Shown here in pieces: positions 62,469 to 62,921 of a stretch of DNA of 64,000 nt. The notes beneath the pieces were generated by a model. That model saw only the letters and a program-made list of their open reading frames with translations, was not told the DNA's origin and did no database searches. Positions within the stretch are counted from its first letter, which is position 1. Each line of letters begins with the position of its first letter. Position numbers and translations under genes: made by a program. This DNA is from Escherichia coli (GTDB taxonomy: Bacteria > Pseudomonadota > Gammaproteobacteria > Enterobacterales > Enterobacteriaceae): assembly GCF_003334335.1 (NCBI RefSeq), contig NZ_QOWQ01000001.1. One strand, written 5' to 3'.

Positions 62469-62563
62469 GCATGATTCACCCGTAGCGGTTGCTTCCCGCG
62501 CTTCCATAGAAATCCCCTCGATTTGAACATTTGGTTCTTATGGCAAAGATTTAGTCTAAGCAG

Positions 62564-62578
62564 GCAAGATTTACGCCA
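62564..62578 (-). promoter_or_regulatory. Candidate sigma54 promoter upstream of xdhABC
   Basis: Reverse strand reads CTGGCGT-AAATC-TTGCC: TGGC, GG/GC spacing and TTGC all match; about 95 nt upstream of the xdhA start. Confidence 0.4.
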
Positions 62579-62921
62579 GAAACGACGATAAGCGTTAGGG
62601 GAGGTAGGAAGTGTGATGACGTTAAAAAAACACAGATATGATACGAAACAGGACTCTGAATAGGGGCAGTGATACGTATCAATATGAGTGGCGATAAAAT
62701 CAATGTGATAAATTGGGATTATTACGCATCAGGATGGGAAATAGGGTAAAAAGTCAGGAAGTTCGATACCTCTACAGCGAATATTTTGCTGATGATACTT
62801 CCCTTTGCCAAATGAAATTAACCTCTTTCTCTATTACCACGTTTTTCCAGAAGCAAGAGATTGGGTATCAAGAGGCTGGCTGCTATGATAAGGCGTCTTG
62901 TTTTTTAAGCGAGGAAAGATT

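Follow-up and report, generated by a model that had tools for sequence, protein, structure and literature searches.

The spacer upstream of xdhABC in Escherichia coli raises the question of which promoter drives this operon, and of whether that promoter belongs to a regulon common to the surrounding purine and urate genes. An earlier note on the same DNA had read, from the sequence alone, a candidate sigma54 promoter on the strand of xdhA and, together with weaker candidates before ygeW, uacT and ygfK, had suggested one YgeV/sigma54 regulon spanning the whole cluster. The window, that is, the whole stretch of 64,000 nt that was analysed, corresponds without gaps and with 99.99% identity to the reverse complement of E. 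coli K-12 MG1655 at ~2.9988-3.0628 Mb, and a K-12 position equals 3062813 minus the window position. The purine/urate cluster, from uacT to xdhA, occupies ~30-62.5 kb of the window, and the genes nearest to the spacer are as follows.

60210-62507, minus strand: xdhA, counted from the conserved ATG as its probable start
59321-60199, minus strand: xdhB, of the xdhABC operon
58845-59324, minus strand: xdhC, of the xdhABC operon
57027-58805, plus strand: ygeV, a sigma54 enhancer-binding protein encoded 3.7 kb from the xdhA promoter
from 62922, plus strand: start of actS (ygeR)

The operon downstream of the promoter is xdhABC (58845-62507, minus strand), and the segment at 62563-62579 on the minus strand is very probably its sigma54 (RpoN) -24/-12 promoter, defined by two features.

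62563-62579, minus strand: sigma54 -24/-12 promoter element CTGGCGTAAATCTTGCC, conserved and equal to ChIP-seq site OS29
62552, minus strand: predicted transcription start, placed by a published rule 19 bp past the motif centre (PMC4591121)

The 15-nt core of this 17-mer, TGGCGTAAATCTTGC (62564-62578, minus strand), is the motif read in the earlier note, the strand and position of which were borne out. Relative to the predicted start at 62552, the GG at 62577-62576 lies at -25/-24 and the GC at 62565-62564 at -13/-12; in TGGCGT-AAATC-TTGCC these two dinucleotides are exactly 10 bp apart, as in the consensus TGGCAC-N5-TTGCW, from which the element departs by GT for AC at -22/-21 and by C after TTGC. 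The element is intergenic and faces xdhA. Its 3′ end is separated by 95 nt from the ATG annotated in K-12 (62468), for which the distance of roughly 95 nt given in the earlier note is exact, and by 55 nt from an upstream in-frame ATG (62507). The start-site rule that places transcription initiation at 62552 reproduces, for the K-12 ATG, the 84 nt given in its source (PMC4591121), and the predicted leader would measure 45 nt to the ATG at 62507 or 84 nt to that at 62468.

Which of these two codons begins xdhA is indicated by an alignment of 25 upstream sequences, in which the following feature is aligned throughout.

62505-62519, minus strand: Shine-Dalgarno sequence GAGGGG (62519-62514) and ATG (62507-62505), aligned in all 25 sequences

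In the K-12 annotation the gene starts at 62468 and encodes 752 aa, and PGAP places the start in other E. coli genomes at 62507, which gives 765 aa. Because of the conserved Shine-Dalgarno sequence and ATG and the PGAP usage, 62507 is favoured as the start; it is probably the true one, and the K-12 start is then 13 codons too short. With this start, as judged from the alignment, the xdhA leader would be ~45 nt long. An Rfam search of 60000-64000 matched only the glyU tRNA, with neither a riboswitch nor a leader RNA in the xdhA leader, and a scan of 62400-63000 found no terminator.

The motif alone is a poor guide to function. The caution in the earlier note that such motifs occur by chance a few times in 64 kb was well founded, as TGGC-N7-TTGC is found four times in the window against 4.43 expected; the bare patterns TGGC-N7-TTGC and TGG-N8-TTGCW were rejected as discriminators, since they show no enrichment and leave real and chance occurrences inseparable. 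A position weight matrix was trained on 38 intergenic ChIP-seq sites, none of them among the four in the cluster. With this matrix the xdhA site scores 11.96, within the range of the training sites (7.9 to 21.0), and matches scoring at least as high number six in the window versus 7.2 in dinucleotide shuffles. Because both the pattern counts and the matrix counts equal chance expectation, the sequence of the xdhA motif by itself proves nothing, and the reading of the site as a functionless chance match draws on the same counts and on equal or better matches inside ygfB, ssnA, yqeB and xdhB. The description of the site as the best-scoring candidate holds in the matrix of Bonocora et al., where it leads the four intergenic sites of the cluster (10.93, followed by 10.06, 9.84 and 4.53), but not in the 38-site matrix, where it shares fifth place in the window with the ygfK site (11.96), behind the ygeW site (16.1), a motif upstream of gcvT and intragenic matches in ygfB and ssnA.

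Position is more informative than score. The matrix scan that the earlier note had proposed places four of the six best matches in the upstream-sense zone, where a match is intergenic, precedes a gene start and faces that gene; the zone accounts for 4.4% of positions (binomial p = 5e-5). Of these four matches, three lie in the purine/urate cluster, before ygeW, xdhA and ygfK.

The chance reading is given next to no probability on account of published experiments and of conservation. ChIP-seq of sigma54 recovered site OS29, which is the identical 17-mer CTGGCGTAAATCTTGCC, assigned to xdhA at a distance of 84 nt (Bonocora et al., 2015; PMC4591121, Table 1), with a fold-above-threshold value of 11 and the EcoCyc flag C, for experimentally confirmed (PMC4591121). 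Sigma54 thus occupies exactly this sequence in vivo, in M9 cultures that had not been induced (PMC4591121). After a genome-version shift of 1978 bp, the OS29 peak centre, 2998270 in U00096.2, falls at window position 62565, within the motif. The mRNA responds as well: xdhA is one of the 22 genes by which Zhao et al. (2010; PMC2831329) extended the sigma54 regulon, its level being 4.9-fold up five minutes after induction of sigma54 overexpression and 2.1-fold down in an rpoN deletion (PMC2831329, Table 2), and the promoter predicted there, tttcTGGCGTAAATCTTGCCTGctta at -110 to -93, is the same motif (PMC2831329). Occupancy at OS29 (PMC4591121) and the dependence of the mRNA on the sigma54 level (PMC2831329) together establish the xdhA site as a sigma54 site. 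A point against the promoter reading comes from genomic SELEX with sigma54 holoenzyme in vitro, in which the ygeV/ygeW spacer was recovered and no peak was found upstream of xdhA (PMC8743547).

Conservation of the element was examined with the first 400 residues of XdhA, which were searched against one genome per species and gave 75 loci; the scored set comprised 55 gammaproteobacterial species from 15 genera, in which the best sense-strand sigma54 match was taken from the 350 nt upstream. A -24/-12 element is found in the 55 species of all 15 genera, from Escherichia to Aeromonas, with scores of 10-16 and at the nearly fixed distance of 66-108 nt before the start of the XdhA protein match, while antisense-strand and coding controls from the same scan score ~3. 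Among 23 distinct orthologous 17-mers, GGC and TTGC are invariant and the spacer varies, position 9 being occupied by all four bases. On the evidence of sequence comparison, such invariance beside a drifting spacer is the pattern expected for a working -24/-12 element.

In the 25-sequence alignment, four further blocks are conserved besides the -24/-12 element: the start codon with its Shine-Dalgarno sequence, a CRP-like box and two repeats. The last three are located in E. coli as follows.

62612-62627, minus strand: CRP-like box TTTTAACGTCATCACA, matching 8/10 consensus positions, centre at -67.5
62677-62689, minus strand: proximal enhancer-like inverted repeat ACTCATATTGATA, a candidate YgeV site, centre at -131, score 16.3
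62698-62710, minus strand: distal enhancer-like inverted repeat TATCACATTGATT, centre at -152, score 15.5

The two 13-bp repeats, of the form TATCA-N3-TGATA, are 21 bp apart. In most enteric genera the pair is centred at about -132 and -153 with a spacing of ~20-21 bp; in Aeromonas, which was not used in training, the pair is again 21 bp apart and lies further upstream, in Edwardsiella the spacing is wider, and in Morganella only one site exceeds the threshold. The CRP-like box, TTTTA-ACGTCA-TCACA, agrees with TGTGA-N6-TCACA perfectly in its right half and poorly in its left (TTTTA). In 43 of the 55 orthologous xdhA promoters a box has its centre at exactly -67.5, and most Aeromonas have TGGGA-N6-TCACA, which agrees with 9/10 consensus positions. 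IHF was also considered for this block of T-tract and TCACA, and by eye the block misfits WATCAA-N4-TTR on either strand; because of this misfit, the block is read as CRP-like.

These upstream blocks bear on the possibility that binding of sigma54 holoenzyme is unproductive and that xdhABC is transcribed by way of a sigma70 promoter, which CRP may activate via the TCACA box. Such a possibility gains from the conserved CRP-like box nearby and from a literature search in which no mapped xdhA transcription start was found; it gains further from the choice of Bonocora et al. to speak of a binding site rather than a promoter, with the warning that binding is not to be equated with promoter activity (PMC4591121), and from the report that sigma70 polymerase transcribes 14% of the sigma54-dependent genes as well (Zhao et al., PMC2831329). 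However, the single sigma70-like match in a scan of 62400-63000 is weak, no more frequent than chance and ~230 nt ahead of the predicted start, and expression of xdhA tracks the dose of sigma54 (PMC2831329). The conserved tandem repeat at -131/-152 is sensible only for an enhancer-dependent promoter. CRP acts from -61.5 or -71.5 at class I promoters and from -41.5 at class II promoters, and a box at -67.5 fits none of these positions for a start at 62552. A sigma70 origin of xdhABC transcription is therefore considered improbable, and the sigma54 promoter is retained as the preferred reading.

Further sigma54 promoters and copies of the repeat lie elsewhere in the cluster, where the sigma54 elements are distributed as listed (sites and ChIP-seq scores from PMC4591121, except for the uacT candidate).

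56642-56658, minus strand: ygeW sigma54 promoter CTGGCACACTTATTGTT, ChIP-seq site OS30, score 3
46826-46842, minus strand: ygfK sigma54 promoter GTGGTGCGATTGTTGCT, ChIP-seq site OS31, score 26
31819-31835, plus strand: ygfT sigma54 promoter TATGCCCGTTTATTGCA, ChIP-seq site OS32, score 3
48157-48173, plus strand: yqeC-internal sigma54 promoter driving yqeB, site IS34, mutation-validated
31515-31531, minus strand: weak uacT candidate CTGGCACTCCACGAGCA, 69 nt upstream of uacT, score 7.3

Thus the candidates before ygfK and ygeW mentioned in the earlier note are bound by sigma54, but the word weaker does not clearly suit the ygeW site in comparison with that of xdhA, its score in the 38-site matrix being the higher one (16.1 versus 11.96). 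The candidate before uacT fared worse: the ChIP-seq peak in that spacer belongs to ygfT, and the uacT match, with a good -24 half and GAGCA at -12, is weak and is not listed among the intergenic ChIP-seq sites (PMC4591121, Table 1).

The repeat was followed through the window with a matrix trained exclusively on the xdhA upstream regions of other species, without E. coli. Matches scoring at least 14 number seven versus 0.56 in shuffles, and the eight best matches of the 64 kb all lie within the purine/urate cluster, six of them in four sigma54 promoter spacers. Besides the two copies upstream of xdhA, they are the following.

47011-47023: perfect palindrome TATCATTATGATA, upstream of ygfK, score 20.5
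31641-31653: repeat in the uacT/ygfT spacer, common to both divergent genes, score 19.0; at -143 for the uacT candidate
56859-56871: repeat in the ygeW/ygeV spacer, score 19.0
48401-48413: repeat inside yqeC, score 16.1
55015-55027: repeat inside ygeX, score 15.6
56957-56969: repeat in the ygeW/ygeV spacer, score 13.5

With copies upstream of xdhA, ygeW, ygfK and ygfT/uacT, the repeat is a candidate for a common operator at the cluster promoters. The copy inside yqeC lies ~220 nt downstream of the yqeC-internal sigma54 promoter at 48157-48173. As to known sites that the repeat might represent, the Fur box and the NtrC site (TGCACC-N5-GGTGCA) were both ruled out by the orientation of the half-sites, their spacing and the variable central 3 nt.

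The likely owner of TATCA-N3-TGATA, to judge by where the repeat occurs, is YgeV, for which it would be the enhancer site. YgeV consists of an N-terminus of ~160 residues without a domain match, a PAS domain, an AAA+ sigma54-interaction domain (PF00158, E = 2e-70) with GAFTGA at residues 347-352, an AAA lid and a Fis-type HTH (HTH_8), and has no receiver domain, a domain content that disagrees with the label of orphan response regulator (PMC9426417). A protein search with YgeV returned near-identical E. coli sequences only, and a search of representatives at 50% identity reached other genera, in which orthologues of 53%, 51% and 45% identity are found in similar gene clusters; sigma54 matches and the same repeat concentrate there in the same spacers, and the CRP-like box is less regular. 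The name UacR was tried as a newer name of YgeV, and its literature matches were clinical urine-albumin papers only.

Expression data agree with such a role. The YgeV iModulon has xdhABC, ygeWXY and ygfT as its named members (Lamoureux et al., 2023; PMC10602906), and the sigma54 promoters before xdhABC and ygeWXY were remarked on in the same work (PMC10602906); a later gene group of this iModulon also includes hyuA, ygfK, ssnA, ygfM, xdhD and uacT (PMC12133099). The idea of one YgeV/sigma54 regulon over the cluster is thus already published, in 2023. The purine/urate cluster appears to form one regulon, because ygeW, ygfK and ygfT have the same arrangement of repeat, CRP-like box and -24/-12 element as xdhA. 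The suggestion made in the earlier note is accordingly supported by the ChIP-seq sites at ygeW, ygfK, ygfT and yqeC, by the YgeV iModulon and by the repeat matches, with the connection between YgeV and xdhA itself being a putative one.

It is also conceivable that the sigma54 promoter is genuine and that its activator is NtrC or another enhancer-binding protein of E. coli, with TATCA-N3-TGATA bound by a different factor. The literature search found neither direct YgeV-DNA or YgeV-xdhA data nor a DNA-binding motif for YgeV, and a change of expression in a ygeV mutant was found reported for ygfT only, second-hand, with no report found of loss of xdhA expression; moreover, ygeV itself is not part of the YgeV iModulon (PMC10602906), and the yqeC-internal promoter is induced by nitrogen limitation (PMC4591121), which leaves room for another activator. 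That promoter has a CRP-like box and a -24/-12 element, and its sole repeat-like match is the downstream one. Against an activator other than YgeV, the repeat co-occurs with ygeV orthologues (45-53% identity) and sigma54 promoters, its eight best matches in the window all belong to the cluster of ygeV itself, it is unlike the NtrC consensus, and expression of ygfT is reduced in a ygeV mutant according to an earlier report relayed in PMC10602906. A different activator is hence regarded as unlikely, and YgeV is kept as the best candidate.

CRP-like boxes accompany the other sigma54 elements of the cluster as well, and at xdhA, ygeW, ygfK and ygfT they stand between the enhancer-like repeats and the -24/-12 element.

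56701-56716: CRP-like box of ygeW, centre at -77.5, one mismatch
46905-46920: CRP box of ygfK, centre at -97.5, perfect consensus
46875-46890: second CRP-like box of ygfK, centre at -67.5
31770-31785: CRP-like box of ygfT, centre at -68.5
48098-48113: CRP-like box of the yqeC-internal promoter, centre at -78.5
31565-31580: CRP-like box of the uacT candidate, centre at -68.5

The positions of the boxes among the cluster promoters differ by approximately whole helical turns, and the presence of a box between -60 and -100 in 4/4 promoters has a chance probability of ~2e-7 if the window-wide rate is used and of 7e-5 if the intergenic one is. A paper of 2025 (PMC12507026) mentions that the spacer between ygeV and ygeW has a native Crp site and that glucose represses the degradation of urate; the literature search found no CRP binding data for xdhA. 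It is an evenly balanced possibility that all sigma54 promoters of the cluster have a common three-part layout, consisting of one or two TATCA-N3-TGATA enhancers as the YgeV site, a CRP-type box and the -24/-12 element. The CRP-type box, at -67.5, -77.5 or -97.5, would then lie on one face of the helix and would bend the DNA as IHF does elsewhere; if so, it would account for the repression of urate degradation by glucose. From Escherichia to Aeromonas, conservation extends to the enhancer repeats and to the -24/-12 element, and the CRP-like box is kept that widely only at xdhA.

Initiation at the xdhA promoter may proceed as follows. Sigma54-RNA polymerase binds 62563-62579 as a closed complex, a step shown by the occupancy in the published ChIP-seq. 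An enhancer-binding ATPase, for which YgeV is the best candidate, would remodel the closed complex into an open one. YgeV probably assembles on the repeats at -131 and -152 and may reach the polymerase by looping of the intervening DNA, probably aided by a protein-induced bend at the CRP-like box at -67.5, the bending protein being possibly CRP-cAMP or another. Transcription is predicted to start at ~62552 and to give a ~45-nt leader to the ATG at 62507.

This arrangement resembles that of glnAp2, a sigma54 promoter activated by NtrC from tandem palindromic enhancers on the same helix face more than 100 bp upstream. The -24/-12 element, the tandem upstream palindromes on the same helix face and an AAA+ activator with GAFTGA, presumed in the case of xdhA, are features of both, whereas the enhancer sequence at xdhA is TATCA-N3-TGATA, its presumed activator YgeV has a PAS-type sensor instead of a receiver, and an element like a CRP box lies between enhancer and promoter. 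The prpBCDE operon has a sigma54 promoter that is activated by PrpR and is under CRP-dependent catabolite control. Like xdhABC, it is a catabolic sigma54 operon that has its own enhancer-binding protein encoded close by and is connected to cAMP-CRP, a connection that at xdhA is a candidate one; a fixed -67.5 box common to several promoters of one cluster is not known for prp. The prpB promoter is represented in the ChIP-seq data by site OS01 (PMC4591121).

The xdhA promoter as such is not new: it goes back to publications of 2009/2010 and was EcoCyc-confirmed by 2015, and the promoter given by EcoCyc, by Zhao et al. (2010) and by OS29 is the same object, with the same 17-mer at the same genomic position. 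Both the observation and the regulon reading of the earlier note are correct and already published (Zhao et al., 2010; Bonocora et al., 2015; Lamoureux et al., 2023). What is added here to the published promoter is its conservation across genera, the enhancer-like repeats and the CRP-like box; together with the correction of the start codon, the repeat and the box are by-products of the analysis, and the literature search did not find the start-codon correction, the shared inverted repeat or the CRP-like box as published. The cluster encodes anaerobic degradation of urate and purines by gut bacteria, which is linked to hyperuricaemia and gout, and the regulation of these degradation genes was called poorly understood in 2025 (PMC12507026). 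A candidate YgeV operator and a candidate CRP site for each promoter may be useful for understanding or re-engineering expression of the pathway.

Several other features were encountered. The second-best matrix match (15.1), CTGTCGCGATTTTTGCA, lies at 11946-11962 on the plus strand, 184 nt upstream of gcvT; GT replaces the essential GG, the table of intergenic ChIP-seq sites does not include the motif (PMC4591121), and it is probably a look-alike. The intragenic matches scoring above xdhA are at 7558-7574 in ygfB (13.0) and at 42898-42914 in ssnA (12.1), and the ChIP-seq paper (PMC4591121) names neither gene in its tables or its main text. Occupancy is not predicted by matrix score alone. An FNR-like sequence, GTGATacgtATCAA (62669-62682, plus strand), overlaps the proximal enhancer repeat of xdhA; it was rejected as an FNR site, with five such matches in the window versus 2.9 expected and no conservation outside E. 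coli. Finally, an IS1 element is present in the actS-xdhA spacer of some E. coli genomes (H1-H3), at approximately window position 62795 (~position 600 of locus L079). Because it lies upstream of the enhancer repeats, the promoter module is intact in the E. coli that carry it.
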